A DNA stretch of 64,000 nt from Squalus acanthias (taxonomy: Eukaryota), in assembly GCA_030390025.1 (NCBI GenBank), contig CM059432.1, positions 29,638,001 through 29,702,000 of the forward strand, given 5' to 3'. The translations under genes and the position numbers were made by a program. This document shows, piece after piece, positions 15,944-64,000 of the stretch (its first letter is position 1; each line of letters starts with the position of its first letter). The notes beneath the pieces are model-generated. The model ran no database searches, had not been told where the DNA came from, and saw only the letters and a program-made list of their open reading frames with translations.

Positions 15944-16250
15944 AAGGTAATCTTGAACTTGTACAACACCTTAGTTAGGCTACAGTTGAAGTATTGTGCA
16001 CAGTTCTGGTAACAGCGATGGAAAAGGTGCTGCATAGATTCATTAGGATGTCACCCAGGTTGAGGCATTACAGTTATGAAAAAAGACTTGAGAAGTTACG
16101 TCTTTTTTCACTAGAGCTGGGGATGTTACGGGGTGACTTAATAGAGGTCTTCAAGATTATGAAGGGTTATGATAAGGTAAATAGTGATAGTTTGATTCTA
16201 CTAGTCAGGTAACAAGAGGGTACAAATTTAAGAAAATCAGAAAAAGAATT
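15944..16250 (+). mobile_element. CR1 fragment, continuing 13700-13789 and 15350-15382
   Basis: LYNTLVRLQLKYCAQFW, RGDLIEVFKIM. Confidence 0.8.
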
Positions 16251-17491: not shown

Positions 17492-17715
17492 AAATAAAAA
17501 CAGAACATTTTGGAAACACCCAGCAGGTCAGGCAGCATCTGCAGAGAAAGGAAGGTAGGGTTAACGTTTCAGGTCGATGACCATTCATCAGTACCGGGAG
17601 CTGTTACAGATGAAGAGTTTATATGGAGGAACAGAGCCAGGGAAAAGGGGTCAGGGAGAGAAAAAGAGAATGGTGTGTGATTAGGTGGAGGATAGGAGAT
17701 GATTAAATGACAGCG
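17492..17715 (-). mobile_element. Penelope-like 3' repeat fragment with hammerhead motif at 17559-17595
   Basis: Homologous to 15383-15610; minus strand CTGATGA-A-TGGTCATCGACCT-GAAACGTT. Confidence 0.75.
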
Positions 17716-21353: not shown

Positions 21354-21795
21354 ACGGCTCAGTGGTAGCACTCTCACCTCCTGAGTTAGAAGGTCGTGGG
21401 CTTAAGTCCCACACCAGAGACTTGAGCACAAAATCTAGGGTGACACTTCAGCACAGTACTGAGGGAGTGTTGCACTGTCAGAGGTGCCATCTTTTGGATG
21501 AGACGTTAAACCGAGGCCCCACCTGCCCTCTCAGGTGGGCGTGAAAGATCACATGGCACTATTTTGTAGAAAAGCAGGCGAGTTTTCCCCAGTGTCCTGG
21601 TCAATATTTATCCCTCAGCCAACATCATTATAACAGATTATCTGGACATTGCCACAATGCTGTTTGTGATACCTCATTGTGTGCAAGTTGGCTGTCACGT
21701 TTCCTATATTGCAACACTTCAAAAGTACTTCATTGGCTGTAAAGTGCTTTGGGATGTTCTGAGGTCAATATATAAATGCAAGATCTTTTTCTTTC
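21354..21795 (+). mobile_element. DeuSINE (SacSINE1/AmnSINE1-like); further copies at ~38925-39395(+), 43620-43990(-), 55413-55862(+), 56455-56910(-), 60180-60390(-), 61700-62040(-)
   Basis: tRNA head GGCTCAGTGGTAGCACTCT; Deu-domain GATGAGACGTTAAACCGAGG..TCAGGTGG.CGT.AAAGATC.CATGGCACTATT; tail TATATAAATGCAAG. Confidence 0.8.
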
Positions 21796-22402
21796 TATTA
21801 GCTGATCTCTTCTGGGGTTATGGTAAGATCACAACAATTCCCATCTGTGGGTATTAAGTGAGGGCAGGATTGGGCTTTGCTGTGGTGCCTCCTATGGTAA
21901 AATAGCCCATCAATATTCCCTGTCAAGGGTAGCACTTGGGTGAAGCAGTGAGGTTTTCAAGAACCTGTGGCACAGTCCCCCACCAAGAATATGACAGGGA
22001 CAAGGTACCTCTTTGTACCCTCTCCCCACCCACAGTGTCAGGCTAACTTTGTGATAGGAAAGACGCTGAGTGTATGAGACAGAATGATTTGAGGAGATGT
22101 AGCATCAAGGGCAATTCAGGTGGTTCCCCATAGGGTTAGAAGAAAAAACTTTGTCAGATAAGATAAGCTGAGCCATTTTACATATTTCCTATTACTTGGC
22201 AATAAAATGATACTCGTAGAGATCTTGAATGAGTCATTAGCCCAACACGGACTGTCCATGCTCAGGGTGAGGTCCGACGGCAAGTACTTTGGCGGGTAAG
22301 GTCATACAGGAATATACGTCAGGGGTGAGGGACTGTCAATGCTTAGGGTCAGGGACTGTTCAGGGACGATTGGGGTGTAAATAAGAAGTTTATAGGGGGT
22401 TA

Positions 22403-29260: not shown

Positions 29261-30549
29261 GTGTTTGTCGCACGACGGGCAACACGCTGAAAATGTTGTA
29301 AAATGGGAAGAGCCAGTAAAAAAAGGATTATCTAGGCAGTTAACAAGCTGTTAACTGCCTTAAGTGGCTCTCCCGCCGTTTGGTGTCGGGTCTGATCAGG
29401 ACTCGCAGACCCGACACTTTGCAAAGTTGCGTGGAGGCGGGATAGCGGCGGGTTGCGAACCCGCCATCAATCATTTGGATTTTAACTCCCGACCCCCCTC
29501 CAAACCCGCCCTCTGAGCGCCGGTAAAATCATGGCCATCTTGTTTGACCAAGCTTTCAGTCACCTCTCTTAACTCTTGCACCATGGCTCAGTGCCTTCTC
29601 CTTTATGCCTTTTATCTTTATTTCTTCTCCCTCTCTGTAAAGCACCTTGGGGCATTTTCTATGCTGAAGGCACTGTATAGATGCATGATGTTGCTATTGA
29701 CATCAGACTTGTACTGGAGAATACAAAGCCGGCTGGACTGGAACAGATTGGTCAATTTAAATCTGTCGCTAATTAAAAACATTTCTTAAATGCTTCTTCC
29801 CTGATGCAAAGTCAAAGCAATAATCTAACCGCACAAAGAGAGAGAGGAAAGAAAGAGATCACAACAGTAATATTGACAGTCATTATCTTTAGGTTCACAA
29901 AAGCATTAAAGCAGGTGCATTATTTTACCATTAAAATATTCCATCATACATTCAGAAGAAGGGAAAACAAAGCTCTTAGGCGTTTTTTTGTCTCTCCCTG
30001 GAGTTCTGCACAGATTGAGGACTAATGAATTTTTAACATTTCTAATAGCTGGTTGGAGCAGGAAGCGGCTGCCTTGGGACTGTGCTTCATGTCTTCCTGC
30101 AGTTGAATATCAAATGGATCAAACGGTGGGCTGCTTCACTAACAGCCAGCCTGGGAATTTAACCCAGGAATCAGTACTGTAACAGATTGGAGGGGCTTTC
30201 TCTCTCAGTTGGTTTACACAGGCTGTTTTCATAAACACGCACTGTTTTTTCTTCCATTTTGCTTTCTCCCTCCCACTGGGCTACAGTTCCACAGGATTGG
30301 CTGTGACTTATCTTCCGGCTATCCTACTAAGGTTGGGGAGGGGATTGTGGAAGACTGTGGTCAAGCCAGACCCTGCCCTGACTGGCTGTCCATATACATG
30401 GGCTTTCCAATGGGAATCATAGTACAGCGATCGGAAACAGGAATCCTGGCTGATTTTTTCCTACCCCAGTTATACTGAGAGCAATTGCCGCACCCTCATT
30501 TCATTGACTGAGATCAACTAACTCAGCACTGACCATATGAGCCATATAA

Positions 30550-32480
30550 CAACAGCAACTTGAATTTATATAGCGCCTTTAAGGTAGGAAAATGTCCCAA
30601 GGTGCTTCACAGGAACGTAATCAGACAAAATTGACACCGAGCCAAAGAAGGAGATGTTAGGATAGGTTGGTCAAAGAGGTAAGTATTAAGGAGGATCTTA
30701 AAGGGGGAGGGAGAGATGGAGAGGCAGAGAGCTTTATGCAGGGAATTCCAGAGCTTATTGCCTAAATGGCTGAAGACACAGTGGCCATTGGTGGGATGAA
30801 GGAAGTGGGGGATGCACCAGATTCCAGAGTTGGAGAAACACAGAGTTCTTGGAGGGTTGTAGGGCTGGAAGAGATAAGGAGAAGCGAGGCCATGAAAGGA
30901 TTTGAACACGAGGATGAGAATTGTAAATTGAGGTATTGGTGGACTGGGTGTCAATATAGGTCAGTGAGCACAAGGGTGATGGGCAATGTCCCCCCAAGCT
31001 GCACTGCCTCCTGTGTGGCCTGCCTCCCCCAATGCGCAGCCCATTCAAATTTTTGCACATGCACGGTATCTACAGTGTAAAAGCCGGTGAGCGGTCTGCA
31101 CGGGACCTTGCAGATGACTGCGTGGGCGTGCAGCTTAGTGGCAATATTGGTGATGGGTGAGCAGGATTTGGTGCAGGTTAGGATACAGGCAGCAGAGTTT
31201 TGGATAAGCTCAAGCTTATGGATGGTGGAAGATGGGAGGCCAGCCAGGAGAACATTGGAATAGTCGAGTTTGGAGGTAACCAAAGCATGGATGAGGGTTT
31301 CAGCGGCAGATGGGCTGAGGCAGGGGCGAAGACAGAGATGGATGTAGGTGGTCTTTCTGATGAAATGGGTATGGGTCGGAATATCAGTTCAGGATGAAAT
31401 AGGTGTCCGAAGTTGGAAATAGTCTGGTTCAGACTGAGACAGTGTCGGGGAGGGGATTAGAATTGGAGGAGAGAAAACTGAATTTGTAACAGGGACCGAA
31501 GACAATGGTTTTGTTCTTCCCAACATTTAATTGGAGGAAATTGTGGCTCATCCAGGACTGGATGACAGACAACACAGAGGCATTGGAGGGGTCAAGAGAG
31601 GTAGTGGTGAGGTATGGCTGGGTGAGAAGAGAAGCCGTTGCAGGAGATTCTCTGGCTATGATTGGATAGTTAAGAGTGGAGCCAGGCGAGGGTACTCCCA
31701 CTCAGCTGAACACGAAGGAGTGATGGTGGAAGAGGATGGTGTGGCCAATCGTATCAAAGGAAGCAGAGAGGTCAAGAAGGAGGAGGAGAGATAGTGCACC
31801 ATGGTCACAGTCACAGAGGATGTTACTTGTGACTTTGATTAGGGCCATTTCAGTGCTGTGACAGGGGAAACCTGATTATTAGAGAGGTTCAAACATGAAG
31901 TTGCGACAAAGATGGTCACAGATTTGAGAGGTGTCAACACATTCAAGGACTTTGGAAAGGAAAGGGAGATTGGAGATGGGGTGGTAGTGTGCAAGGACAG
32001 AGGGGTCAAAGGTGAGTTTTTAAAGAGTGGTGATGACAGGAGATTTGAAAGAGAAGTGGAACCATTTACAACATCAGTTAGCATGGAGACTGGGAAGGGA
32101 AGTTGGCTTGTAAGCAGTTTAGAGGGAATAGGGTCAAGAGAGCAGGAGTTGGGTCTCATGGACAAAATGAACGCATGAGGGGAGGTATGAGAGAAACTAT
32201 AGAAAAATGCAAGTCCAGGGCTAGGGCAGGGGGGAACCTTGGCATGGTGGCAAGGGAAAGGGAGGGATGCGGCAGAGGCAGGTGAACAGATGGTTTAAAT
32301 CGTAATAACAAATATGTCCATGAACTTCTCTCACTTGTGGTTGGAGGTGAGAGTGGGAGGGTCAGGGGAAAGAGGTTTAAGGAAATGGTTGTTAGTGAAG
32401 AAAAGTAGCTGGGGTTATCTTTCCATCCCAGGATGATCTCGTCGTTTTGGCAGAGGAAAGCAGGGCCTGCTAGTGCTTGA
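30550..32480 (-). mobile_element. L2 LINE fragment
   Basis: SCSLDPIP, FLQLNVGK, VTSKLDYSNVLLAGLP, IQNSAA, LWNSL motifs; L2-type 3' tail. Confidence 0.85.
30984..31149. mobile_element. hAT MITE nested in the L2
   Basis: CAATGT...ATATTG termini, perfect 8-bp TSD GTGATGGG. Confidence 0.85.
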
Positions 32481-33040: not shown

Positions 33041-33062
33041 TTATGTTACTGGACTAGTAATC

Positions 33063-33199
33063 TGTTCTGACGAAAGGTCATCGACCTGAAATGCTAACTC
33101 TATTTCTTTCTCCACAGATGCTGCCTGACCTGCTGAGTATTTCCAGTATTCTCTGTTTTTAGTTCAGATTTCCAACATTCACAGTATTTTGCTATTGTT
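33063..33199 (+). mobile_element. Short Penelope-like 3' repeat insertion starting at the hammerhead motif (33064-33098)
   Basis: GTT-CTGACGA-A-AGGTCATCGACCT-GAAA-TGCT-AAC; flanks CTAGTAATC / CTAGAAATC (TSD-like) inside a SINE head. Confidence 0.8.
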
Positions 33200-38809: not shown

Positions 38810-41006
38810 ATGGTGAATGTGTGCAACTAACAGTCCAGGGATCAGTCAACATGTTCAAGAGTAGTAGTTTAAGAATAGTTTTTTGGTGAAAGAAGCAATT
38901 GAAGGATGTATTTTCTGAATTTAGCCTTGGCACATTGGTAGTCCTCTTCCCTCTGAGTTAGAAGATTGCGGGTTCAAGTCTAGAGATTTCAGCATATAAT
39001 CTAGACTGGCACTTCAGTGCAGTACTGAATGAGTGCTGCGCTGTCAGAAGTGCTGCCCTGTCAGAAGTGTTGTATTTTAGATTAGATTTTAAACTGAGGC
39101 TCTATCTGTCTGCTTAAGGTGGACATAAAAGATCCCATAGCACTATCTGAAGAAGAGTAAGGAAGTTATCCTGCTGTCCTGGCCAACATTTTTCCGTCAA
39201 CCAACACCACCAAATAGATTATCTTGGTTACTTTATTGTATTGCTGCTTGTAAGTTCTTGCTGTGCACAAATTGGCTGCTCTGTTTGCCTACATAATAAG
39301 AACCATTAAACCTCAAAAATGTGTTATCTTTGTAGGGCTTTGGGATTTTCTAAGGACATGAAAGGTGTCATATAAATGCAAGCTTTTTCTTTCTTTTAAT
39401 CAGGTCTGCCATAGATATCATCTCAGGTTCAGTGGCATCAGTCACTCCCATAAGTGGTGTGAGTGTCTTACTTTGACTCCCACTGCCGTCTATCTACTTC
39501 AGGTGCAATAATTAAGCAGCCCTGTGACCTGTACTAGATATCCATGTATTTTACATATGTATTTCTTCAATCTTTGAAGATGGACTGAGTTGAGGTGAGA
39601 TGAGGTTTGATGAGTGAGATTTATTTCAACTGACTAAGGTACAGAACAAGTTATGATCAAATTCCACTTTGTTCAATCAATATAACTTATCTTCATGGAA
39701 AGATATAAAATAAAGAACACGCCACATTTCCCCACATTGATGGGTCATCTTACTTGACTTTAACAAGAGGTCTTCTAACTGTATACCAGCATTTCTATCA
39801 TCTTTATCTCAGTGAAGGCCCTAACAGATTTTCCTATAACAAAACCTGAATGCCTTGACAGCCATCCTGTTTCAAAAGTCACTCTTCTTATTCTTCTGCT
39901 TCTTAGACAGGGATTGAAGAGATTTCCAACACGATAGGTAAGCGGTATCTTCAAATTACCTAGATAAGCTAATGAATTGTTTATTGTTTAGACTTTGGGA
40001 AAAACAATATCTAGTTAGCATATTAACTATCCTTTGTCTTGGTGCCCATTTTTTAAAATCTCGTGAGAATGCACATTGCATTTCAAGACTCAGCATTAAA
40101 AGTATGATTTTTCTAAATCCTTTTGGTGGATAAATGATAAGAAAATTCCAAACTGTGACAGTATACATAAGAACATTAGAACATAAGAAATAGGAGCAGG
40201 AGTAGGCGATTCGGCCCTTCGAGCCTGCTCCGCCATTCAATAGATCATGGCTGATCTTCTACCTCATCTCCACTTACCTACACTATTCCCATATCCCTTG
40301 ATATCCAAAAATCTATCAATCTTTGTCTTGAATATACTCAACAACTGAACATCCACAGCCCTCTGGGGTAGAGAATTCCAAAGATTCACAACCCTTTCTC
40401 CTCATCTCAGTCCTAAATGGCCAACCCTTTATTCTGAGTCTGTGACCCCTGGTTCTAGATTCCCCAGCCAGGGGAAACATCCTCCCAGCATCTACCTTGT
40501 CAATCCCTGATGCCGCATTTATTGCCCATTCCTAATTGCCTTTTGATACAACTGAGTGACTTGCTAGGCTATTTCAGAGGGCAGTTAAGAGTCAACCACA
40601 TCACTGTGGGTCTGGAGTCACATATAGGCCAGACCAGGTAAGGACGGCAGATTTCCTTCCCTAAAGGACATTAGTGAACCAGATGCATTTTATGAAAATC
40701 CGGTAGTTTCATGGTTACCATTACTGATACTAGCTTTTTATTCCAGATTTATTTATTAACTGAATTTAAATTCCCCAGCTGCCGTGGTGGGATTTGAACT
40801 CATGTCTCCGGATCATTAGTCCAGGTTTGGATTACGAGTCCAGTAACTACCCGTACCCATTATACTATGGGATGTTTTTGAACTTAGACACCAGCCAGTT
40901 GGACCACGAATATCTATTTCTGGTTCTGTAGATTCCCATGCGCCTGTATGCAAATACTTTTGGGGCACATTAAGCACTAAAGCTTCTGTTTAATCAATGA
41001 AGGAAC

Positions 41007-43209: not shown

Positions 43210-45859
43210 TATTTAGAACAATCAGCTTTGGCTTGAAATGTACACCACACGTCCACATCTTCTGTGCAGAGAAAATCAGCATCTAAGGGTAGACATTATG
43301 ATCAGTACAGTTCTGGTGCAGATACTTAAAGTAAACAGGCATAAAAACTAATCACAGAGCAGAATCTGAGGCCTGTTCATTTTTTCAGCTTTTGTTTTCA
43401 GTTTTCATTAGTGAAGAATATTCCCGGGAATTTTCAGGGTAGCGGTGTGGGGTGGGAGGGTGGGGGGGGGGGGGGGGGGAATCGGATCTTTTAAAAACAG
43501 ATACAAGTAGGAGGGAGAATTAAAAATGAAAATCAAAGAAAAACTGTGTGGGAGTGTATGTATGGGTGTGTGTGTATATATATATATGTGTGTGTGTGTG
43601 TGTATGCGTGTAAAGAAAAAAGAAAGACTTGCTTTTATATAGTGCCTTTCATGTCCTGAGGATATCCCAAAGTGAATTACAGCCAGTGAAGTACTTTTTT
43701 GAAGTGTAGTCGTTGTTGTAATATAGGAAATGTAGCAGCCAATTTGCACACAGCAAAGGCCCACAAACAGCAATGTGATAATGACCAGAATTCTGTTTTT
43801 ATGTGTTGGTTGAGGGATAAATATTGGCCAGGACACTGGGGAGAACTCCCCTGCTCTTCTTTGAATAGTGCCGTGGAATCTTTTACATCCACCTGAGAGG
43901 GCAAACTGGGCCTTGGTTTAAAGTCTCATCTGAAAGACAGCACATCGAAAAGTGCAGCACTCTCTCAGTACTACACTGAAGTGTCAGCCTAGTGTGTGTG
44001 TGTGTCAGTGTTCACTCAGCACATCCTTTAATTGTGGGTGTGTAAAAGTATTACACTTGAACTACTTAACAATTGAAATGCTTGGCATGGAGAGAGAACG
44101 TGGGTTTCTGGGAAGCGAAAAGCAGTATTTGCAGTTCAAATCCATCAAAAATAATGGGAGGATGTGTTTTTTTTAAATGAGGGAATAATGAAATGGCAAT
44201 AAAGGGAATGAGTTGAGGGGGGAAAGCAGAAATCTTTTGATAAAAAATGCAGACCCATTAATCATTTGATACTTGTGCCCTCCAATTCCAGTTTAATAAC
44301 CTGCTTACAGCCACATTATCCAAGCCTCTCAGCACTTTAATGAACTGAATCATTTCTCCAGGGAGTTGAGGGGGATGGGCTAGGCTAGGGGAGTTGGGGA
44401 GGGGGAAATTAAGAGAATTGAAAAATGACAATTTCAGGTCTTGAGCCGAAAGGGTGGAACAATCAGGATGACACATTTACCTATTACTGGATTCTTATTG
44501 CATTGATGGTTCCGTCCATTAAAATAAAATGGGGGAGGGGCAGAACAAGAAAAAATCTGGCAAATTAATCGCAACAATTTCCGGACTTGAGACTGTCGGA
44601 TGTGATAATTTAATAAGAGGCCCATTACTTCACGGGAATTTTAAAAATCGGCTATTTGCAATTTAGTTTGGAGCTTTAGTATTGGGAGAAAAAAAAATCA
44701 TCTTAAATATAGATGAGCTGCTTTAGCTAACTAAGGGAAGACTGATGTCTGTCAGACCAACCCAGGCCCTCATACAAGCACATCAGATTGACAGCTTACA
44801 ACCTACTTTTCTCAGTCTCTGCATTTTTTTTTCACAAGTGTTGTCCCACTTACTGAGACTTGGGGGAAAAAAATCTTCCATTCTCTTGAATTAAGGGAAA
44901 TAAACAAATTCATGCTTAAAAATCTTGCTAGAAATCGCGGAGTAAATAGAGAAAATTCTAATACGTTTGTCAAGGGAGCTTCCCGGATGGGTTAGTGGAT
45001 AAATACACTATGTGGTGTGATACTAAGTCATATGGAGCAGAAAGTCCCAAGATTGATCTCAGGTCAGATAGCATTCGGGTTGTTGAAATTAGCCTCAGTA
45101 CCCTTGGGCTCGAGAGGGGAACAATCAACCAGAGTTCCTGCTCCATATCGCCGTCCAGTGACCTCTGCTAGAAAGTCTACCCTTGTGGTCATTAGGATGG
45201 GATGTCCTACAGGGTCACATAGCCGGCTGATGCTTGCAGTCTCGGCTCACTTGACTACTTGCGTGAGACATCAAAATCTTGCCAGTACCAATGGAAAGGT
45301 GACTCAGTCAGAGTCAGTGCCGACAGCAGAGGAGAGAAGAGAAGCTGAGAGGAGAAAGCGGACCAAAAGAAAGAGCTAAAAAAGGGAAACAAAGGTCGCT
45401 CCAACCTGGTACTGCGGTCTATACGTAGATGCGTGTTGTAGACTGGGTCAACATCACCATAGAAGAGAAGCTAGGTTAATGTTTTGGGAGCAGGCCAGGC
45501 TGAGTTGGTGATGGACAGGGACTAAAAATGTGTGGCGTTAATGTGAATAAGCAGCAAAAGAAAAATGGAGCTTTCTTGGAGTTTTGCAAGCGCACTCCAG
45601 CTTCCGTTGTTGTGAACTGACATTTCAATCAATAATCTATTACTCCAGCCATTGGGATAGCGCACAATGCTTTGTTTAAATGGTAGGCTACAGCCATCCA
45701 AAAGATGCATATTTCCTGTAGAAATGATAGGACCTGTCATATAACGCAAGTGGGATGTATTTATGGCAATCAGCTGAAGCAGCTGCTTTTATGCAGTGTG
45801 TACCTCTCTCGCACTCTTGGACAGGAAATAAAATAAAGCTAGTTATCTTATACATTTAA

Positions 45860-49935: not shown

Positions 49936-51067
49936 CTAGAAGCGGCTTCTTATCAGCCGTTGATGGACAGCCCTTGCAGTGGCAACATTGTGCGCCTCCC
50001 TCCCACGTTGGTGCTGCTGTTGATCCTCCTCCTCAGGTGGTGCACCAATCCCCAGTGGCATTGGCTGGGTCCTCAGGATTGCCAGGTTGTGAAGCATGCA
50101 GCACACAACTATGAACAGGGAGACTCGCTCAGGAGAGTACTGCAGGGCTTCTCCTGAGTGGTCCAGACAGCGGAACCATTGCTTGAGCATGCCGATCATC
50201 TGCTCAATGATGTTCCTGGTGGCGAGATGGCTCTCATTATACCGCAGCTCAGCAGGGGTGTTGGGGTTACAGAGTGGTGTCATCAGCCAGGTGCAGAGTG
50301 GATAACCTTTGTCCCTGAGGAGCCATCCACTTGGGTGATGCGGTGCCTGGAAAAGGTCTGGCACACCAGTGTGGTGCAGGATGAAAGCATCGTGGCTGCT
50401 GCCAGGATAGCGGGCATTGACGGCGAGTATGAGCTGTGTGTGGTCACAGACCAACTGCACATTTAAGGAGTGGTAGCCCTTGCGGTTTCGGAATACCTCT
50501 GCATTTTCATGCGGTGCCCGCAATGCCACATGCGTGCAGTCAATGGCGCCCTGCACCATGGGGAAGCCCGCTATCCTAGAAAAAGCCACATGCGCATTCA
50601 TGCTGTTTGGCCCGGATCATGGGGAAAGAGATGTACTGGCGTCTCCTTTTATACGGGGCATTTGTCACCTCCCGGATACAACAATCGACAGCGAACTGGA
50701 AGATATTGGCGATGTCCCCAGTAGATGCTTGAAAGGAGCCGTTGGCATAAAAATTCAGAGCCACTGTCACCTTCACTGCCACCGACAGAGACATCCTGGT
50801 CCTCAATTGAGGCTGCAGATCTGGTTGCAGCAGGTGGCAGAGCTCAGTGACCACCTCCTTGCTGAAGCGCAGCCTGCACAAACACGGCTCCTCAGACAAA
50901 TTAATGTAGGAGAATTGTTCCCAGAATACCCTCGGAGGGTAAGGTCTCCTGTGCAGAGGCCTGTTGGCCCTCCTCCCTCTGGCCATGTTTGCCACTCTCT
51001 CTCTGTGTCTCTGCTGCCTCTGATTCTGCAGGTGCAGGACGACACCCCAAATCAATGCAGCCCCCAA
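49936..51067 (-). pseudogene. Harbinger (HARBI1-like, IS5-related) DDE transposase with one frameshift near 50600
   Basis: RLRFSK, GAIDCTH, NRKGYHSLNVQLVCD, YPGSSHDAFIL, LLRDKGYP, RNIIEQMIGMLK, CCMLHN. Confidence 0.95.
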
Positions 51068-52864
51068 AGTCTCTTCTAAATTGATGCAAGGAAGGTCAAA
51101 TCAAAATGAACATGCTAAGTGCTGCTCAGTACCCAAAACTCCTTCACACGGCTTTGAATCTCTCCAGAAGTCTCTCTCTCAGAATGCGTGGTGCAAAAAT
51201 GTCGCCGACAAAAAAAGGCAGGAATCGGCCGCCTTTAAGTAACACTCCCCCAGCCCCATCCCGACTGCAAAATGTTCCCCTCTACCAGTCGTTGCTAGCG
51301 GCAGGCGGAAAGGCAGGGTGCGCCACTCAATATCCAGTCTGGGGCGCTACTGGGGTGTTGCACGCTCGACTGACGTCATGATCTGTGGGTGCAGGAGATC
51401 GTGGCGGTAGTGTTTAGCGCCGCCGCAAAATGTCTGGTCAATTTCGCGAGCGGCGCAAACATCGCCACGCTCGGGCGCTAGTTGCTTTGTGCCCCGTTAG
51501 TGCCCTCTTAGGGCACTAACGGGAGGCGCTAATCAACCGAATTTTTCCCCCTTATTTTCCAAGTAATATGTGACCTCCCTATTTTTCTTAACAAAATGTA
51601 ATATCTCACATTTATCTGTGCTGAATTTCATTTGCCAATTATATGCCCATTCTGCAAGTTTATTAATGTCTTTTTGTAATTTGTTGCAGTCCTCCTCAGT
51701 ATTGACTATCCCCCCCCCCCCCCAATTTGGTGTCATCTGCAAATTTAGAAATTGTGTTTTTGATTCCAAAGGTAAAATCATTAATATAAATTGTGAACAA
51801 CAGTGGTCCCAGCACTGATCCTTGATGAATGCCACTTTCCACCTTCTGCCACTCTGAATAGCTACCCTTTACCCCTACTCTCTTCTTTCTGTCTTGAAGC
51901 CAGCTAGCTATCCATTCTGCTACTGACTCTGCATTCCCTGACCTTATTCATTAGTCTATTATGTGCTACCTTATTGAAGGCCTTTTGAAAATCTAGATAA
52001 ATTACATCTGCTGCATTACCCTTGTCTACTCTCTCGGTTACCTCTTCAAAAAATTCAATTAGGTTGGTCAAGCAAAACTTTCCTTTTGAAATCCATGCTG
52101 ACTATTTATTATTATATTTTTGGTTTCCAGATGTTCTTCCATTTTCTCCTTTAGTAGGGATTCCATTATTTTTCCTACCACCGATGTTAAGCTGACTGGT
52201 CTATAGTTCCCTGGACATGTTCTATCTCCCTTCTTAAATATGTATTACGTTAGCTATCCACCAGTCCTCTGGCACTACACCTTTTTCTAACGAATTACTA
52301 AAGATGTGTAGTAATGCCTCTGCTATCTCTTCCTTAGATTCTTTTAAAATGTGCGGATGTAATCTGTCCGGACCAGGGGTTTTATCCTCTTTGAGTTTCA
52401 TTAGTTTATTTAATATATCTCCTCATTTTACTTTAAATGCACTTATCTCATTACTAATTTCATCATCCGATGTCATCTCCACCTGCTCTATCTCCCTGGT
52501 AAATACTGTGCATGCAGTCTCCTGCTTTAATCCCGCATCCTTAGATGTGGAACCCATTATGTCCAAATCGAAGGATGAGTGCACTGTGCTAGTATTTTGA
52601 GCCAGGACAGAATTCCCCCCCTAAACCTCTCTGCCTCTCCACCTCCCTTTCCTGCTTTAAATCGCTCCTTAAGCCCCACCTCTTTGATCAAACCTTTGGT
52701 CACCCATCCTGATATCTCCTGCTTTTGACTGTTGTCTGTTTTACCTTACCCCCATTGAAGCGCCTTGGGATGTTTTTCCTACATTAAAGGCATGTATTTC
52801 CAGCATTTTCTGTTTTAGTTTCAGATTTCCAGCATCCACAGTATTTTGCTTTTGTATTAGTCTG

Positions 52865-54800
52865 TGCTGGTGTTTATACTCCACATGACTCTCCTTCCAT
52901 TCCATTTACCTCATCTCAGCTTTTCAGCATATCTTTCTATTCCCTCTTCTTTTATCTCCTCACCTAGTTTCCTTTTGAAAGCATTTAAGTTATTTGCCTC
53001 AATCATTTCCTGTGGTAGAGAGTTCCACATTCTAACCACTCTCTGAGTAAAGAAATTTCTCCCTATTTCCCTATTGGATTTATTAGTAACTATCTTGTAT
53101 TGATGGCCCCTAGTTTTGGATTCTCCCACAAGTGGAAACATTCTCTCCCCATCTACCCTGTCCAACACATTCATAACTTTAAAGACCTCTATCGGGTCAC
53201 CTCTAACTCTTCTCTTTTCTAAAGAAAACTGCCCCAACCTGTTCAATCTTTCCCGATAGCTGTAATCTTTCAGTTCTGGTACCATCCTTGTAAATCTTTA
53301 TTGCACTTTCTCCAGTCCTTCCATGACCCTTTCAGAGTATGGAGGCCAGAACTGTGCACAGTACTCCAAGTGCAGCCTCACCAGGGTCCTAAACAAGTTT
53401 AAGATAACTTTACTACTTTTGAATTCTATACCCCTAGAAATAAATCCCAGTGCTTTGTTAGCATTTTTAGTTGCTTTGCTGACCTGCAATGCTGCTTTTA
53501 ATGATTTGTTTACCTGTATCCCTAGTTCCCTTTGCTCTTCTACCCCATTCAGTCTCTTATTTTCTAAGATGCAGGAGATGTTTCTATTTTTCCTACCGAA
53601 GTGTATCATCTCACATTTATCTTTGTTAAAGTTCATTTTCCACTTAACTGTCCAGTCTGCAAATTTTCTAATGTCTTCTTGTATTATGTTGCATTCTTCC
53701 TCAGTGTTAGCTAGATTTACAAGGATGTTGCCAGGACTGGAGAATTTTAGCTGTGAGGAAAGATTGGTTAGACTGGGGTTATTTTCTTTGGAACAGAGGA
53801 GGCTGAGGGGAGACTTAATTGAGGTGTATAAAATTATGAGGGGCCTAGATAAAGTGGCTAGGAAGGACCTATTTCCCTTAGTAGGGGACATAGATTTAAA
53901 GTAATTGGTAGAAGGATTAGAGGGCACCACACTTTAGGAAGGATGTGAAGGCCTTAGAGAGGGTGCAGAAAAGATTTTACAAGAATGGTTCCAGGGTTGA
54001 GGGCCTTCAGTAACGTGGACAGACTGGAGAAGCTGGGTTTGTTCTCCTTAGAGCAGAGACGGTTGAGAGGAGATTTGATAGCGATGTTCAAAATCATGAG
54101 GAGTCTAAACAGAGTAGATAGAGAGAAACTGTTCCCATTGGCGGAAGGGTCGAGAGCCAGAGGACACAGATTTAAGGTGATTGGCAGAAGAACCAAAGGT
54201 GACAGGTGGAAAAACCTTTTTACGCAGCGTGTGGTTATCATCTGTAATGCACTGCCTGAAAGGATGGTAGAGGCAGATTAAATTGTGGCTTTCAAAATGG
54301 AGTTGGATAAGTACCTGAAGGAAAAAAATTTGCAGGGCTATGGGGAAAGGGCGGGGGAGTGGGTTTAGCTGAAGTGCTCTTGCAGAGAGCCGGCACAGGC
54401 TCAATGGGCCGAATGGCGTCCTTTTGTGCTGTAACCATTCTATGACTCTATAATTCTAGGGGAGTTGAGGAGAACTTTTTTCACCCAGAGGGTGGTGGGA
54501 GTCTGGAGCTCACGGCCTGAAAGGGTGGCAGAGGCAGAAACCCTCATCACATTCAAAAAGTACTTGGATGTGCACTTGAAGTGTTGTAACCTACAAGGCT
54601 ACGGACCAAGAGCTAGAAAGAGGGATTCGGCTGGATAGCTCTTTTTCGGCCAGCACAGACACGATGGGCCGAATGGCCTCCTTGTGTGCTGTAAATTGCT
54701 ATGATTCTATGATTCTATCCCCCAGTTTGGTATCATCTGCAAATTTTGATATTGAATTACTTGTTCCTAAGTCCAAATCATTAATGCAAATTATGAATTT
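52865..54800. mobile_element. Triple-nested CR1 cluster: minus CR1 (52865-53710, 54719-54800) containing plus CR1 (53711-54718) containing another plus CR1 (~53925-54455)
   Basis: ORF2 C-terminal motifs on both strands; each host resumes after the inserted tail. Confidence 0.8.
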
Positions 54801-57800
54801 GAGGAGTTATTTTTCATGTAAAGATTAGTGATGGGATCCACCTACCTGTTGTTAACTTCAGTAGTTAAGTTTTGTATACTGATGAAAGCAATGTAAACCT
54901 CACAATGCTCCATTATCAAGACACATCTTCCCCTGCACATTCCTCATAAATAGTTAAATTTAGCCTGTTCCTTTCCTCACATTTCCAAAGTATCCAGTAT
55001 GTGTGCTGCAACCACCTGAAGTGTCACCTGAGATCAGTGAGATTGATGGGTAGTTTTCAGTCTCACTAGCTGTGCGCAATGACAACTCTGCTCTGGAATA
55101 CCAAGAATAAGCATACCTCACACTGTCTCTTCACCATCCTCAAAGGGGTAACTCCCAAGGGAGTAAGTAATTCCTGGCACTGACTGCCAAGAGCATGGGC
55201 ATTCCTTGCCTCACCCTCCACCCCCCAGCCCTTCATTTAAAGCAGGCACAAATACCGTCCACAACCACAGCCCTACTATTAGCTGGGCAATGCATTGTCC
55301 CATTGAACAGAACTTGTCAATCATTGCCACTAGATCAGAGGGACCATTTTGACCAGGACTGACAATAGACTTCAGCCAATGGAAAAAAATCATTGAAGAT
55401 CATTTGTGTAGCATGGCTCAGTGGTAGCATTCTCACAGAAAGTGATGGGTTCAAGCCCACAGCAGGACTTGTAGTACATAACCTGGACTGACATTTCATT
55501 GCAGTACTGAGAGAGTACTGCATTGTCGAAGGTGCTGTCTTTCAGATGAGACGTTAAACCAAGGCTCTGTCTGCCTGTTCAGGTGGACATAAAGGATCTC
55601 ATAGCACTATTAGAAGAACAGGGGAAGTCTCCTGGTGTCCTGGCCAACATTTATCCCTCAACCCAAAACTACCAAAACAGATTAACTGGTCATTTAGCTC
55701 ATTGCTGTTTGTGGAGATTTGCTATGCGTAAATTGGCTGCTGCATTTGCCTACACAACAACAGTGACTAAAAGAGTTTCAGGAGTAATTCATAGACTGTG
55801 AAGCATTCTGTGACATCCGAAGGCCAGGAAAGTCCCTCTATAAATGCAAGTTCCTTCTTCTTTCTAATTGGCCACCCATGCATTGACCAGAATCCAGTAA
55901 TCCTGCATCACTCCCTAATGGCCCTCCTGTCCTCTCTGTGGACTGTGTCATAATCTTGATTGTTCCAGAGAGGCTTCAGTACCACTTTAAAGGCTCTCTT
56001 CTTTCTCCTAACAGCTCTGCTTTCCTTTACAGTTACCTTAACAGGTCATATCTAACTGAATGGGTGGCTAGCAGGCTCTAGCATCAGGCCACAGTGGTAA
56101 CAGACATGTGGGCGAACACAATGGAGCTCCCAATCCCCAGGTTTAGGCTACTTCAGAATTTGGAATTGCAACTAGAACACAGAAGTAGCCCATCAAGTCT
56201 GTTTCAGTGTTTTCCTCCACATAAGCCAGCTAGTTTCTCCTGCTCACTCCCCCTACCTTTAACATTTTCTTTTTCAAACAACTATCTAATTCTCTTGCAA
56301 AAGAATTTATGAAGTATGTCTCAATAACAGTTTGTAGCAGAGAATTCTAACTGCCCTCTGCGTAAAGAAAATTTTGTTTAAGGTCCCTTTGAATTCTTTT
56401 TGTGATTATTTTAACTGTGTGCTCTCTCATTACTGTATCAACAACCAGTAGAAAGAAAGGAACACTAGCATTTATATAAGCACCTTTCATGACCTCAGGC
56501 TGTCCCAAAGCGCTTTACAACCAATGCAGTAGTTTTGAGGTGTAGTCGCTGTTGTAATGTAGGAAACGCACCAGCCAATTTGCATACCGCAAAGTCCCAC
56601 AAACAGCAATGATATAACGACTAGATCATTTGATTTTTAGTTGTTGGTTGGGGATAAATATTGGCCAGGACATTAGGAGAAACTTGCCTGCTCTTCTTCA
56701 AAATAGTGTCATGGGATCTTTTACACCCACTTGAGAGAGTCTCGTTTTAACATCTCATCCGACAGATGGCACTTCTAACAGTGTAGCACTCCCTCTGTAC
56801 TCTACTGAAGTGTCAGCCTAGATTATATGCTCAAATCCATGGGGTGGGGCTTGAACCCATAACCTTTTGACTCAGAGGCGAGAGTGCTACCACTACGCCA
56901 CGGGTGACTAAAACCCAAATACCTCCGTGAGGTCACCGATTAACCTTCTCTGATTTAGTAAAAAAAAAGCCTGAACTTTTCAAGTCTCTCTTCATAAGTA
57001 TAACCCTGCATTCTTGGTAGTACCTTAGTGAATCTATGCTGCACATATTCCACTGCAGGTTTATATTTTGTAAAGTATTGTTGATTTCCGATGAATTTAA
57101 CTATTAAACAGGGTCTTGTTCTGTAATAGTGGGTGTAAATTAAAAGTTTAAGTAAGTTTCCCAGAATGCTGACTGGTATCTCAATGGCTGACGCTGTTAG
57201 GGCTGTTTCATGTAAATCACATAGGGGGAGCCAGTGATTTGATTTTCAGCAGACAACACAGAGATAAATACGGAGATGTGCCCTCTGTTCGTTAAGAAAC
57301 ATTAGGGTAAATTCTGTGAGGTCCCGGACAGCTGGCAAGGCCTCATACACTGCAGTTGGAGCACATAAAATCGGGAACGCATCCAATTTTCTGAGATGCA
57401 ATTTGGGACCAAATAATGAGGCCACACTACCAGCATGCAAAGCCTCATTTAAATATTAAAATCCAATGTAAACATTTTGACAACTGGATTTTACAAGTAC
57501 TGGGCACAAGGAGAGCCTTGGGAAAGAGCCTTAGAGAGAGATGGTAGGTTTTCCAATAAAAATGTTTTAATGGTTTTTGTTTTTAGTTTCGTGTACCCTT
57601 GACTCCTTGACTTTGCTGCCTAATTATCCATTTTTGCATTTTTTTTTCTACCAATATTTTCTTCATTATTCTTGGTTTCTGCTGGCTTTGATGTTCTACC
57701 TCACAAAGAGCAATATAGGTACATAGGAATTGCAAGATGAAAAAGGACCAAGGTCCATCTAGTTTGCCTTCGACCACCCTGGTAGTCGCATGCAACAATG

Positions 57801-58106
57801 ATAATGGAGTTGTTGACTAATCGTAGCAATCAATCTCTATTAATTAGTCTACAACATAAGGCGAGAAAAACCTCAGTAGTGGAGAGTTTAGGGAACCATA
57901 GGTCCACGTTTTTCCTCCATACTTACCACGGCATATCTCAAATTACTCATAAGTTGGGGGGGGCGGGTTTTAACCCAGAGGAGTGCGTGGATTTGGGCGA
58001 GTTTACAGGCTAAAAACCAGCAAAAATGCGAGCGCGTCGGGAAGCCAGCTCCAACCCACTGACTTCCGCATTTAACTCAAGCACGTTAGGCTGCTTGCAT
58101 CATCAC

Positions 58107-58251
58107 CAATGTTCCCCCTAATTTTTTTTTGGGTGCACGGTCCCTCTAACGGGCTGCGCGACACATTCAAAGTTTGCAGGCGCAAAATTTCACATTTGAA
58201 AAGCCGGTCCCAGGCTGTGCGGGACTGGCAGACAGCTGCACGGCCGTGTTG
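58107..58251. mobile_element. hAT MITE
   Basis: CAATGTTCCC left end; flanks ATCATCAC / GTCATCAC. Confidence 0.65.
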
Positions 58252-58254
58252 GTC

Positions 58255-59010
58255 ATCACCCCTCTCCATCCCTCTCCCTGGCAACTGTCTGAGCCTGAAT
58301 GAGACTATTCACAACCTTGGTGTCATATTTGACCCCAAGATGAGCTACCGACTACATATCTGCACCATCACTAAGGCTGCCTACTTCCACCTCCCTCAGC
58401 TCATCTGCTGCTGAAACCCTCATCCATGCCTTTGTTACCTCCAAACTTCCAATGCACTCCTGGCCGGCCTCCCATCTTCCACCCTCCATAAACATAAGCT
58501 GATCCAAAACCCTGCTGCCCGAATCCTAACTTGATCCAAGTCCCGTTCACCCATCACCCCTGTGCTCGCTGACCTACATTGGCTCCTGGTTGAGCAACGC
58601 CTCGTTTTTAAAATTCTCATCCTTGTTTTCAAATCCCGCCATGGCCTCACCCCTCCCTATCACTGTAACCTCCTCTGGCCCTGCAAGCCTTCAAGATCTC
58701 TGCGCTCCTCCAATTCTGGCCTCTTGCGCATCCTCGATTTTAATCACTCCACCACTGGCGGCCATGCCTTCAGCTTCCTGGGCCCTAAGCTCTGGAATTC
58801 CCAGCCTAAACCTCTCCGCCTCTCTACCTCTCTCCCCTCCTTTAAGACGCTCCTTAAAACCTACCTCTTTGACCAAGTTTTTGGTCATCTGTCCTAATAT
58901 CTCATTATGTGGCTCTGTGTCCAGATTTGTTTGATAATGCTCCTGTGAAGTGCCTTAGGACGATTTACAAAGTTATAGGTGCTATATAAATACAAGTTGT
59001 TTTTGTTGTT
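58255..59010 (+). mobile_element. L2 LINE 3' fragment
   Basis: NLGVIFD, LADLHWL..FKILILVFKS, LWNS..FKTLLKTYLF; L2 tail. Confidence 0.9.
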
Positions 59011-59035
59011 TGTGTTATGTAGGCAAAGGCATTTC

Positions 59036-60170
59036 ACTCCAGCAACACCCTACAAACAACTCTTGAATGCTGAATGTCCACACAACCAACAGGGTACCCT
59101 ACGTCGTCCAGTACTTCCCCGGAGTGGAGAAACTACGCCATGTTCTTCGCAGCCTTCAACATGTCATCGATGACGACAAACACCTCGCTAAGGCCATCCC
59201 CACGCCTCCACTACTTGCCTTCAAACAGCCGCCTAACCTCAGAAGTACCATCGTTCGCAGCAAATTACCCAGCTTTCAGGATAACAGCGACCACGACACC
59301 ACACAACCCTGCCACGGCAAACTCTGCAAGACATGCCAGATCATCAACACAGATACCACCATCACACGTGAGGACACTAACCACCAGGTACATGGTACAT
59401 ACTCATGTGACTCGGCCAACGTTGTCTACCTCATACGTTGCAGGAAAGAATGCACCGCGGCATGGTACATCGGCGAGACCATGCAGACACTGAGACAACG
59501 TATGAACGAGCACCGCGCAACAATCGCCAGGCAGGATTGTTACCTCCCAGTCGGGGAACACTTCAGCAGTCAAGGACATTCAGCCTCGGATCTGCGGGTA
59601 AGCGTTCTCCAAGGCAACCTTAGAAAACACACGACAACGCAAAATCATCGAGCAGAAACTGATAGCCAAGTTCCGCACTCATGAAGACGGTCTCAACCGG
59701 GATCTTGGGTTTATGTCACGATACATGACGTGATCCGGACTCGAGTCATCGTTGGCTTGTTCACAGATGTGATTCCCAGTAAAAAAGTAAAAATTTTAAA
59801 GCTTTTCGTTTTACATACAGACGGCAGCTTTTGACACGTTAGAACCCCTGCGACTACACCTCATTGTCTCAGTTGTATCTTGCTATGTCTTTGATGTGGT
59901 ACCTTCCTGGCTGACCTGATTAACTTTATCACACCTCGGCAGATAGTCAGGATGATTTAATTTAGTGGTCTGCAATTGTAAGGTACACATGCTTTGTTCT
60001 CTATCTATATATGCTTTGGCGATTCTGTATCTATTTACTTCACCTGAGGAAGGGGCAATCGATAGCTCCGAAAGCTTGTGATTTCAAATAAAACTGTTGG
60101 ACTATAACCTGGTGTTGTGCGACCTCTCAATTTTGTCCACCCCAGTCCAACACCGGCATCTCCGCATCAT
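59036..60170 (+). mobile_element. Penelope-like element, 5'-truncated, with GIY-YIG endonuclease and 3' repeat
   Basis: Linker CxxC, NVVYLIRC..WYIGET..LRQRMNEHR, PVGEHF; frameshifted tail EQKLIAKF..GLNRDLG stopping at ~59733. Confidence 0.9.
60040..60081 (+). ncRNA. Minimal type I hammerhead ribozyme motif (PLE-associated)
   Basis: TCAC-CTGAGGA-A-GGGGC/AATCGATA/GCTCC-GAAA-GC-TT-GTGA; stems I and II pair fully; palindrome AAGCTT replaces stem III. Confidence 0.8.
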
Positions 60171-62269
60171 GACCACCTTCGAATAATGCCATGGGATCTT
60201 TTACGTTTGCCTGAGATGGCAGGCAGGGCCTCGGTTTAACATCTCATCTAAAAGACGGTGCCTCCAACAGTGCAGCACTCCCTCAGTACTACAGTGAAGT
60301 GTCAGCCTGGATTATGCGCGCAAGTCTCTGGAGTGCACTTGAACTCATGACCTTCTGACCCAGAAGTGAGAGTGCTACCGCTGAGCTACAACTGATACAG
60401 TGCACTGTGCTTACTGCCTCCCCTTCCGCAGTGAAGTAGCTTGGGAACTGTGCATGATGAATCACGGGCAGGAACCTGCATTCAATCACCCTCATTGCAT
60501 ATTGCGTGGGAGTACTAGGTAGCTGCATCTCTATACTGTCAGCACTCAAATAAACTGCTCCAAAATGGCTGACAAACCAGTTCTAGCACCCTGCTTATCC
60601 ACTGAAATATAATCAGTCTTTAAACCTCCTGTACATTCCACAGCAACAGAATGACACATATCAGTTTTGCGCATAGGTGCATGTCTATTACTATTATGCC
60701 TATTCACGCGCTTGTATCCCGTGATTTTTAGGGAGCGTTTAGCAGTTGAAGCAAGAGAATTTGATATGTGTTTGGCGCCGTCTAAAATGTTAACCTATTA
60801 AGTCAGGCCTACAAGATCCTCTAACACCAGGATCTATTTTCCTTGCTGGAACTTGCCGTAGAGTCAACATGGTAGTAGGGTAAGAGATTCACAAGGTCAC
60901 AAGATATGTTCGGCCCACTTGATCTCAGAATAACAATCCTGCCATTTTCCCATTATACTACCTGGCTATTTCTTAAAAGAGTCCAACATCCTGTCCTGAC
61001 TTGTCCTTACCTAATAACGCATTCCAGCTGTTAATCACCGTTTGTGCGAAGAAATGTTTCTTGACATCTGTCCTAAACTGCCCTTTGCAATCTTGAACTT
61101 GTGCTCTCAGGTCTTCTGAGAAGGTTTGTTTTAGTTGTCATTGGAACTGATGCTTCCCAAAAACTTTGCTAGTATGATGATACTGTCTTTTGAAATTAAA
61201 AATTTATTGAGGGGGGTGGGGGGGTTCCTGTTAGTTAATAAATGCACCACCCAATGTGATATTAAGCCATACAGACCCAAAGGTTCCTAGTTTAAACTCT
61301 GGTCTGCACTGTTAGTTGATCTCAGCCAGGATGTCAGCAGAACTGCTACTGTTAGGGATGAAATCCAGTTAGGTCCTGGTGTTAGAGGATCTTGTAGGCC
61401 TGATTTAATATTTGGACTGCGCCAAATACATATCAAATTCTCTTACTTCAACTGCATAATCCAGTGATCCCTATTGGAAGTGCATGTGTATGAATGATGG
61501 GTGAGGACCATATTGGATTGAGCTGTGATGCTCCAAGCAATTGAGTTGCCTGTTATCTCTCATTGTTGGGCGAAGCTGTGGCTATTGGTTGATAATCGCT
61601 TGGCTGTGATCCAGAGGTTGGCCAGCACCCATGAAACTGTGGCCTAGCAAAGGATTGACATCTTTAGAAAAGAAAGACAGGAAATTATAATGGAATTTAT
61701 ATTATTGCGCACAGTAAGGTCCCACAAACAGCAATGAGATAAATAACTACATAATCTGTGTTGGTGGTGTTGGTTGAGGGATAAATGTCGGCCCAGACAT
61801 TGGGGAGAACTCTCCTGCTCTTCTTTAAATAGTGCCATGGGATCTTTTATGTCCGCCTGAGTGGGTAGACGGGACCTCAGTTTAATATCTCATCCGAAAT
61901 TTGGAAACTCCAACTGTGCAGCACTCCCTCAGTACTGTACTGTCAGTCTCAATTGTGTGCTTAAGCCTCTGGGGGAGAGCTTGAACCCATGACATTCTGA
62001 CTCAGACGCAAGAACGCCAGCACCAAGCCAAGGCTGACAGCTCAATCTATTAGAATATATCTATTACAAAACATGGATTATTTAAATGGAATAGATTTTT
62101 CTTTGTGTAGTTCAGTGCCTATTTTTATATTTGTGGCCATGCAGGAGCAGGAGATGAGCAGAAGACATCAGTCCAAAATATTGAGAATTTAGTTGTACAT
62201 AACAATATGTGAACTAAATGGTACAATTTTAAAGGGAGTTCCAAAACAGAGAGACCTGTTTTCTTTTCA

Positions 62270-64000
62270 TTTATTCATACACGGGAAGGCCAACATTTAT
62301 TGCCCATCTCTAATTGCCCTTGAGAAGGTGGTAGTGAGTAGCCTTCTTGAACTGCCAGTCGTGTGGTGAAGGTACTCTCACAGTGCTGTTAGGTAGGAAG
62401 TTGGTTACCGCCGCCGCTAACCTCCCGCTGAATTTCGCAGGAGGCGTCGGCGGCACCGCGCCCGGGCACTAGTTACCTTGCGTCCCGTTAGCACCTTGTT
62501 AGGGCGCCGCCGGCGATGACGTCATCGCCATGCGCAGCACCCCGCTCGCTGCCTACTTGAGTACTGGGCTCTTTTGCCGGCACACCGATCCCTGGTGGCC
62601 CAGCTGGGCCTCGGGTCGTGCTGCGCAAGGCCCCTCCCCTTTAAGAAGGGGAGGAAGGCCTGCAGTACTGCAGCGCGACGTGCCACAGCGCGTAGCGCCA
62701 CGATATTCCCTCGCAGCGCCCCAAGAGGGAGGCGGGGCGCATCCAGTAGCGCCCCGTTTCCCTCTTGGGGTGCTACCAATGAATTTTGGCCGCGGGGGGT
62801 GCTAATCTTTTTTGGGGGCACTAAAGGTAGCGCCCCGGCAAAGTTAGCGCCCCAAAGGGGGCGCGACTCAATTATTCCCCCTAAATGTTTAAGGTGGTGG
62901 ATGGGGCACCATTCAAGCAGATTGCTTTATCCTGGATGCTGTCAAGCTTCTTGAGTGTTGTTGGAGGTGTACTCATCCAGGCAAGTGGAGAGTTTTTATT
63001 TATTCGTTCATGGGATGTGGGCGTCGCTGGCAAGGCCAGCATTTATTGCTCATCCCTAATTGCCCTTGAGGAGGTGCTGGTGAGCCGCCATCTTGAACCG
63101 TTGCTGTACGTGTGGTGAAGGTACTCCCACAGTGCTGTCAGGGAGGAAGTTCCAGGAATTTGGCACAGCGACGATGAAGGAAAAGCGATATATTTCCAAG
63201 TCAGGAAGGTGTGTAACTTGGAGAGGAACTTGGAGGTGGTGGTTTTTCCCATGCGCCTGCTGCCCTTGTCCTTCTAGGTGGAAGAGGTCACAGGTTTGGG
63301 AGGTGCTGCCGAAGAAGCCTTGACAAGCTGCTGCAGTGCATCTTGTAGATGGTACATACTGCAGCCACGGTGCGCTGGTGGTGGAGGGAGTGAATGTTTA
63401 AAGTGGTGGATGAGGTGCCAATCAAGCAGCTGCTTTGTCCTGGATGGTGTCGAGCTTCTTGAGTGTTATTGGAGCTGCAAGTGGAGGTGAGAGTGACTGC
63501 CCTTGACATCAAGGTATGACTCCAGCCAGTGGAGAGTTTTCTCCTTGAATCCCACTGACTTCAATTTTACTAGGACTCCTTGATGCCACACTCAGTCAAA
63601 TGCTGCCTTGATGTCAAGGGCAGTCACTCTCATCTCACCTCTGGAATTCAGCTCTTTTTGTCCATGTTTGGACCAAGGCTGTAATGAGGTCTGGAAATGA
63701 GTGGTCCTGGTGGTACCCAAACTGAGCATCAGTGAGCAGGTTATTGGTGAGTAAGTGCCACTGATAGCACTATCGATGACTCCTTCCATCATATTGCTGA
63801 TGATTGAGAGTATACAGATGGGGCGGTAATTGGCCAGATTGGATTTGTCCTGCTTTTTGTGGTCAAGACATACCTGGGCAATCTTCTACTTTGTCGGGTA
63901 GATGCCAGTGTTGTAGCTGTACTGGAACAGCTTGGCTCGAGATGCAGCTAGCTCTGGAGCACAGGTCTTCAGCACGACAGCTGGGATGTTGTCGGGGCCT
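62270..64000 (-). mobile_element. Fragments of another CR1/L2/Jockey-group LINE (RT and 3' end)
   Basis: YRPI..L, KMMEGVI, KELNSRGEMRVTALDIKAAFD; 3' ends at ~62270 and ~62996. Confidence 0.8.
62401..62881. mobile_element. GC-rich Harbinger-type MITE related to the 47930 family
   Basis: Shares GCCCGGGCACTAGTT..CCCGTTAGC and TAGCGCCCC motifs with 51300-51551; right end CAATTATTCCCCC|TAA. Confidence 0.6.

Follow-up and report, generated by a model that had tools for sequence, protein, structure and literature searches.

The question raised by this locus is whether a hammerhead-like motif in the 3' part of a transposable element is a genuine self-cleaving ribozyme and, if so, whether the copy found there still cleaves. 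The motif lies at 60040-60081 of the window, i.e., the whole stretch of 64,000 nucleotides of Squalus acanthias DNA that was analyzed, and inspection of its sequence confirmed it as a genuine, intact minimal hammerhead of a Penelope-like element (PLE). Indeed, the CUGAGGA and GAAA core, the 4-bp stem I and the 5-bp stem II reported in an initial annotation can all be read there, together with an unpaired adenine, A60051, which that annotation had omitted. Stem II contains a single G·U pair at 60054/60067, its closing pair G10.1-C11.1 corresponds to G60052-C60069, and the loop II between its arms counts 8 nt. As also noticed initially, only GC stands between GAAA and UU, which gives the palindrome AAGCUU at 60072-77; there is thus no loop 3, and positions 15.2 and 16.2 (G60074 and C60075) are palindromic. 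The assignment to PLE minimal hammerheads and the predicted cut site after 60077, both already proposed, are supported by a descriptor of the core and stems, by the published consensus and by an 87% match of the neighboring open reading frame (ORF) to a shark protein. As a short RNA, the monomer folds into stems I and II with pairing probabilities of 0.95-1.0; the z-score of its folding energy is -0.99, so that this energy by itself is not significant. The distal part of an extended helix I varies among relatives, with variants at 60032-33. The features of the window are gathered in Table 1.

Table 1. Positions of the hammerhead motif, of its host element and of related or neighboring repeats in the window
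Feature	Position	Strand	Basis
Minimal type I hammerhead	60040..60081	+	sequence, fold, descriptor
Stem I, 4 bp	UCAC 60040-43 / GUGA 60078-81	+	sequence
Core C3-A9 CUGAGGA (60044-50) and unpaired 9b A60051	60044..60051	+	consensus CUGANGAH, Fig. S3 of PMC4209133
Stem II, 5 bp, GGGGC 60052-56 / GCUCC 60065-69	60052..60069	+	sequence
Second, centered palindrome of 6 nt within loop II, restricted to a subfamily	60058..60063	+	cofold
GAAA 60070-73, G60074, C60075, U16.1 (60076), U17 (60077)	60070..60077	+	numbering from PMC4209133
Extended helix I, distal 5 bp 60032-36/60086-90 past a 3x4 internal loop	60032..60090	+	minimum free energy fold
5'-truncated PLE ORF remnant: RT-EN linker and GIY-YIG endonuclease, without RT	59082..59733	+	tblastn, Pfam
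CX4CxxC zinc-finger-like linker motif, Neptune/Nematis type	59310..59336	+	translation; PMC8557442
3' untranslated end / pseudo-LTR of the element	59734..60172	+	depth drop, loose ends
Putative optional tail, about 40 nt, separating the two 3' end zones of the family	60128..60172	+	joints, loose ends
Copies of a second PLE family	3583-3674(+), 15383-15990(-), 17495-17700(-), 33061-33198(+), 52794-52855(+)		
Other copies of the presumed SINE-like repeat	21350-21800, 38920-39400, 43610-44000, 55410-55870, 56450-56910, 61705-62040		

The host of the motif is a PLE remnant whose ORF is about 87% identical to a Heptranchias perlo protein carrying RVT_1 ahead of the same region. In tblastn, residues 430-609 of this protein (P0001) match 59085-59624 with 86.7% identity, and its residues 608-643 match 59620-59727 with 88.9% identity, a frame shift lying near 59620-59625. 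Without frame correction, the ORF stops at 59684; the shifted end frame stops at 59731-33, and the motif starts 306 nt past this stop, in agreement with the approximately 310 nt downstream of the GIY-YIG ORF given at first, and 95 nt ahead of the element end. The Pfam GIY-YIG match on the remnant (E 3.6e-4, 21.2 bits) falls under the cut-off of 22.6. Thirty-three matches were obtained among 217 candidates, the best ten all being named shark proteins, which points to a shark-like host. The family joins a C-terminal GIY-YIG domain and a telomerase-like RT in one ORF, of which the present copy retains no RT part. The N-terminus of the ORF was found in none of 63 shorter candidate proteins and is also absent from three longer shark members (3 of the 25 listed). 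Many shark gene models bearing host-protein names (P0005, P0012, P0016, P0027, P0028, P0030-P0033 and P0041) contain pieces of the PLE ORF and are probably annotation chimeras or exonized repeats. In the RT-EN linker, a CX2-5CxxC motif has been assigned to Neptune and Nematis (PMC8557442), and its presence here provisionally designates a Neptune-like element, the linker motif being common to Nematis.

The 3' end of the element was located at 60170-72 by loose ends with unrelated flanks, and the depth beyond 60172 falls to 2-11%. A second zone of family ends consists of joints at 60128-60136, about 40 nt from the loose ends at 60170-72. An optional 3' tail of 30-40 nt is described for PLEs (PMC8557442, PMC11167929), and the two end zones probably fit such a tail, for which the evidence is weakened since depth is reduced, too, by the changes that the present copy itself carries at 60121-31. 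An ATG stands exactly at the long 3' end of the element (60169-60171), 91 nt past the cut site, and might serve as the start codon where copies stand in tandem. No target-site duplication of more than 5 nt accompanies the present copy. No second copy of the motif's family occurs in the 64-kb window, and no partial-tandem arrangement with an upstream pseudo-LTR (pLTR) was found, the copy being 5'-truncated and alone in the window. Such truncation is the usual state of PLEs (PMC4209133), and the lone 3' motif corresponds to the statement in the same source that "5' truncated PLEs show only 3' HHRs".

The shark motif agrees at every position with the consensus of the minimal hammerheads (min-HHRs) found in metazoan PLE pLTRs (PMC4209133). 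The shared features are a type I topology, CUGANGAH with position 9b, the G10.1-C11.1 pair, GAAA-N-N-U-H, palindromic positions 15.2/16.2, a short helix I, and a U-rich 5' and an AU-rich 3' flank; membership was assessed on U16.1, an H17 other than G, a helix I of 3-5 bp and the pLTR position, all present here. In the extracted text of Fig. S3 of this source, a hand count of the 56 rows gave U, C, A and G at position 17 in 24, 25, 6 and 1 cases, respectively, and G,C at 15.2/16.2 in five. The combination G-C-U-U is already printed in two of these rows (Philodina and Chrysemys), and a Petromyzon row has an identical UCAC/GUGA stem I. None of the 56 rows comes from a cartilaginous fish, which does not imply absence from print. 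In contrast to these min-HHRs as they are presented there, the shark motif has a centered 6-nt palindrome in loop II.

The Schistosoma min-HHR is not cleaved as a single copy, whereas its dimers and trimers are weakly cleaved (PMC4209133). The hammerhead of PAc, a Poseidon element of Anolis carolinensis, cleaves only with the element protein and, in the same report, is dispensable for insertion in vitro, no RNA-seq ends being seen at the cut site (PMC11167929). Of the dimer cleavage initially cited as established for PLE min-HHRs, the published cases are weak, and in PAc the protein is needed. As in PAc, the shark motif lies in a pLTR upstream of two 3' ends, which define a tail in PAc and putatively do so here; the PAc template is copied uncleaved, as may also hold here. 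PAc, however, is a Poseidon-clade element whose hammerhead contains the start of the ORF (PMC11167929), whereas the shark element has a CX4CxxC linker and a candidate ATG past the cut. Type I hammerheads of non-LTR retrozymes have been reported in one chondrichthyan genome, where they likewise sit in a PLE-derived repeat (bioRxiv 10.64898/2026.07.22.740005). As described in that report, such a retrozyme is a non-coding tandem array with one hammerhead per unit, and this identity was rejected for the present locus, a single copy joined to an endonuclease remnant. The role of PLE hammerheads in vivo is called unknown in the accounts consulted (PMC6155905, PMC6765202, PMC7761336).

The window includes a second PLE family, in which the descriptor also picks out a motif at 15477(-), about 250 nt past a GIY-YIG C-terminal remnant at 15918-15730(-). 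Four copies of this family bear a motif (3582+, 15477-, 17591- and 33067+). Their stems are unrelated to those of the first family and they have a CG-type palindrome; the arrangement is nevertheless the same. The core and both stems are kept in one of the four, the three others having a broken stem I, a change of U16.1 or a cut-off within the core, such decay being what dead copies would be expected to show. The copy cut off inside the core is that at 3583, flanked by a 13-bp target-site duplication (3570-82 and 3675-87). Three 3' ends of the family are short and two run about 37 nt further, one of the long ones belonging to a fragment without motif, so that the two classes of ends are clearer here than in the first family. 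No intermolecular pairs appear in the minimum free energy structure of a heterodimer of the two families.

Small PLE hammerhead variants with a very short palindromic stem III, for which cleavage as dimers was proposed, were reportedly described by Lunse, Weinberg and Breaker; the shark motif resembles them, by description only, in this very short palindromic stem III, and sharks may be covered by their work.

A chance resemblance without any ribozyme link would be compatible with several of the motif searches. The bare core pattern is matched in 39 of 100 shuffles, i.e., not above chance, the folding-energy z-score is unremarkable, and no Rfam hammerhead model is among the 14 matches obtained at E<=10 in a scan of 50000-64000, these models likely needing a helix III. 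However, of 1000 dinucleotide shuffles of the window, 4 pass the descriptor of core and stems, which was composed after the motif had been seen, and a single one passes when a palindromic helix III is also required. The motif is, moreover, at the expected place past a PLE endonuclease, and this is repeated in the second family, so that mere coincidence is hardly credible. In prokaryote genomes, used as a negative control, 33 matches to the core string were found and none of them passes even a relaxed stem descriptor; viral contigs gave no match. In metagenomes, a relative is encoded in one of 82 candidate stretches (L001, 51%), whose contig ends about 70 nt past the ORF stop, short of the motif distance.

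Variation among family copies was examined by comparing 59900-60260 with contigs of four runs from three organisms, two of them probably DNA (X1 and X17) and two probably RNA (X7 and X12), a comparison that favors close copies. The contigs placed in the four runs numbered 15,137, 3,378, 2,588 and 366, and the summed depth, which is not a copy number, points to a very abundant family. No core change is found in the four runs among the changes listed at >=3% within 60040-81. Those listed are 60054 G>A, which reaches 30-60% of depth and turns the G·U of stem II into an A-U with pairing kept, 60057 A>G in loop II, two indels at 60056 on the edge of loop II (4 nt deleted or 1 nt inserted), and 60042 A>G, restricted to the probable RNA runs. 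Three further changes were counted without position, namely T>A (X1), T>C (X7/X12) and C>T (X12), with none in X17, and the unplaced T>A of X1 could fall in the core. No compensatory double change was seen within the family in the four runs, the only stem change being single-sided, and at the 3% threshold the flanks show roughly as little variation as the motif does. A loose end reveals a related subfamily with a different N7 and a shorter loop II. An 81-nt contig matching the motif exactly, with a depth of 670, occurs in the probable RNA run X12. Depth rises across the motif as steeply in the DNA run X17 as in the probable RNA runs, and this rise is therefore not a cleavage signal; no ends at the cut site were listed for these runs, whose contigs would not reveal RNA ends. 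Between 59955 and 60107, eight A>G and two T>C changes reach 3.7-13.5% in X7 and 0.9-8.0% in X12, versus 0-0.6% in X1 and X17; this pattern, drawn from DNA and RNA runs of unmatched animals, looks like A-to-I editing of family transcripts from both strands, including A60042 in stem I.

The initial annotation had further suggested that the present copy could self-cleave by dimerizing through AAGCUU, a view that the folding predictions do not favor. The window offers no partner, and stem I is lost in longer contexts: its probability is 0.00-0.22 in all 15 contexts starting at least 60 nt upstream and 0.01-0.73 in six contexts with a short 5' part that reach 60130 or beyond. A double hammerhead with a 4-bp helix III has an energy of -20.1 kcal/mol versus 2 x -12.1 for the monomer ensemble, i.e., about 4 kcal/mol worse, and the probability of intermolecular AGCU pairing in cofolding is 0.00, or 0.07 with loop II blocked; these nearest-neighbor energies leave out the tertiary contacts of the core. 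Since an outer A14/U17 pair would tie up the cleavage-site base, the working part would be AGCU rather than AAGCUU, and from the known fold the productive intermolecular helix would be this 4-nt AGCU. Cofolding prefers instead a duplex through the loop II palindrome at 60058-63, which had been overlooked and dominates the predicted dimers, with stems I and II swapped and an ensemble energy of -34.7 kcal/mol (-25.2 when blocked). This palindrome is present in contigs of all three organisms and absent from the deletion variants and the related subfamily; a palindrome arises in 24 of 840 loop permutations and in 1.3% of the 8-mers of the window, a figure judged after the fact. As modeled, a dimer driven by loop II would leave helix III unextended, and the palindrome is a lead rather than a finding.

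The explanation that we consider probable is that the motif is a genuine minimal hammerhead in the pLTR of a dead, 5'-truncated Neptune-like PLE, where it is a passenger cleaving little or not at all, and that in the active family it takes part in a weak processing that depends on tandem copies or on protein. In that family, the ribozyme would be deliberately weak, being unable to close helix III alone. Two copies in a tandem precursor would swap their stems I and pair A15.1-G-C-U16.1 with the twin, so as to form a 4-bp helix III; alternatively, the element's protein would fold the ribozyme, the cut after U17 serving to process the precursor RNA. Reverse transcription would be primed 50-95 nt past the cut and continue through it. 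As the scissile bond lies within the genomic copy, whose priming would have occurred 3' of it, the template would have been uncut or religated there. The present solo locus would hold an intact passenger with, most likely, little or no cleavage. An engineered tandem would, with some reserve, be expected to cleave in vitro, whereas cleavage of the monomer in vitro is unlikely and a meaningful cleavage at the present locus in vivo is just as improbable.

A rather unlikely alternative is that the pLTR retains the motif chiefly for a structural or protein-binding role, and that even the active family could do without its cleavage or cleaves only marginally. It would accord with the spanning of the scissile bond by every genomic copy, with the normal insertion in vitro of PAc catalytic mutants and the lack of RNA-seq ends at their cut site (PMC11167929), and with the success of Naiad and Chlamys PLEs, which thrive without canonical hammerheads (PMC8557442). 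But in unrelated families the stems turn over whereas the catalytic positions and the palindrome persist, and the PAc hammerhead does cleave with protein, with rescue at C3/G8 in the same report (PMC11167929). It is also unlikely, to a slightly greater degree, that transcripts of the locus are cut after 60077 through AGCU pairing in trans with a family transcript, so that a host RNA is cut. Family copies in probable RNA runs, such as the motif-exact contig in X12, mean that partners in trans may exist, the core is intact, and CUU is a permitted site under the NUH rule and a working one (PMC2238771, PMC6908138), the U17 being that of 24 of the 56 motifs counted in PMC4209133. Against this stand the lack of a cis partner, the near-zero AGCU pairing, the loss of stem I in most contexts and the weakness of the published dimers (PMC4209133).

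The loop II palindrome could also be a dimer-initiation site at which two RNAs kiss or swap their stems II; the outcome would be either the nucleation of chains in which AGCU pairs with a third RNA, or an inactive duplex in which the ribozyme is trapped and thereby switched off. The predicted gain in energy, lost when loop II is blocked, the lack of any change listed at 60058-63 and the same loop in contigs of three organisms go in this direction. Nevertheless, the chance for one loop is 1.3-2.9% and the palindrome was spotted post hoc, with two G-C pairs only; 1.8-17.8% of depth lacks it owing to the 4-nt deletion, the related subfamily has a different loop, and the depth of the core is only 2-17% of that of the shared 3' part. 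A dimer formed by exchange of stems II would, besides, not extend helix III, and such a site is very doubtful. The corresponding broader proposal, that a shark PLE subfamily gained a kissing-loop dimer-initiation palindrome through which the amount of family transcript turns its min-HHR on in trans, by chains of at least three RNAs, or off, by a trapped duplex, is equally remote; if it were true, solo copies scattered in their tens of thousands could cleave host RNAs, with an effect depending on dose. In the preferred reading of a passenger ribozyme, the locus supplies a shark member of a class reported in 2014 from 40 animal species. For the role of PLE hammerheads in vivo, the present truncated solo copy is ill suited, and a tandem element of the same family, if intact, would be preferable; two small testable leads are the palindrome of loop II and what looks like A-to-G editing in transcripts of the family.

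Several repeats and one hairpin surround the element. Directly upstream of the PLE remnant, 58268-59007 holds the 3' part of a LINE-like repeat, which we take to be of the L2/CR1 type and which has a second copy at 30548-31457. The Rfam scan also pointed to a strong G+C-rich hairpin at 62713-62776, with weak microRNA model matches far under the gathering scores. Downstream, an abundant repeat, presumably SINE-like, is represented by seven copies in the window, the first at 60177-60386. At other loci, the 3' end of the element joins this repeat at 60177-83 and 60226-30 (12 of the 15 joints listed), two narrow zones that possibly reflect an insertion preference or a microhomology artifact.
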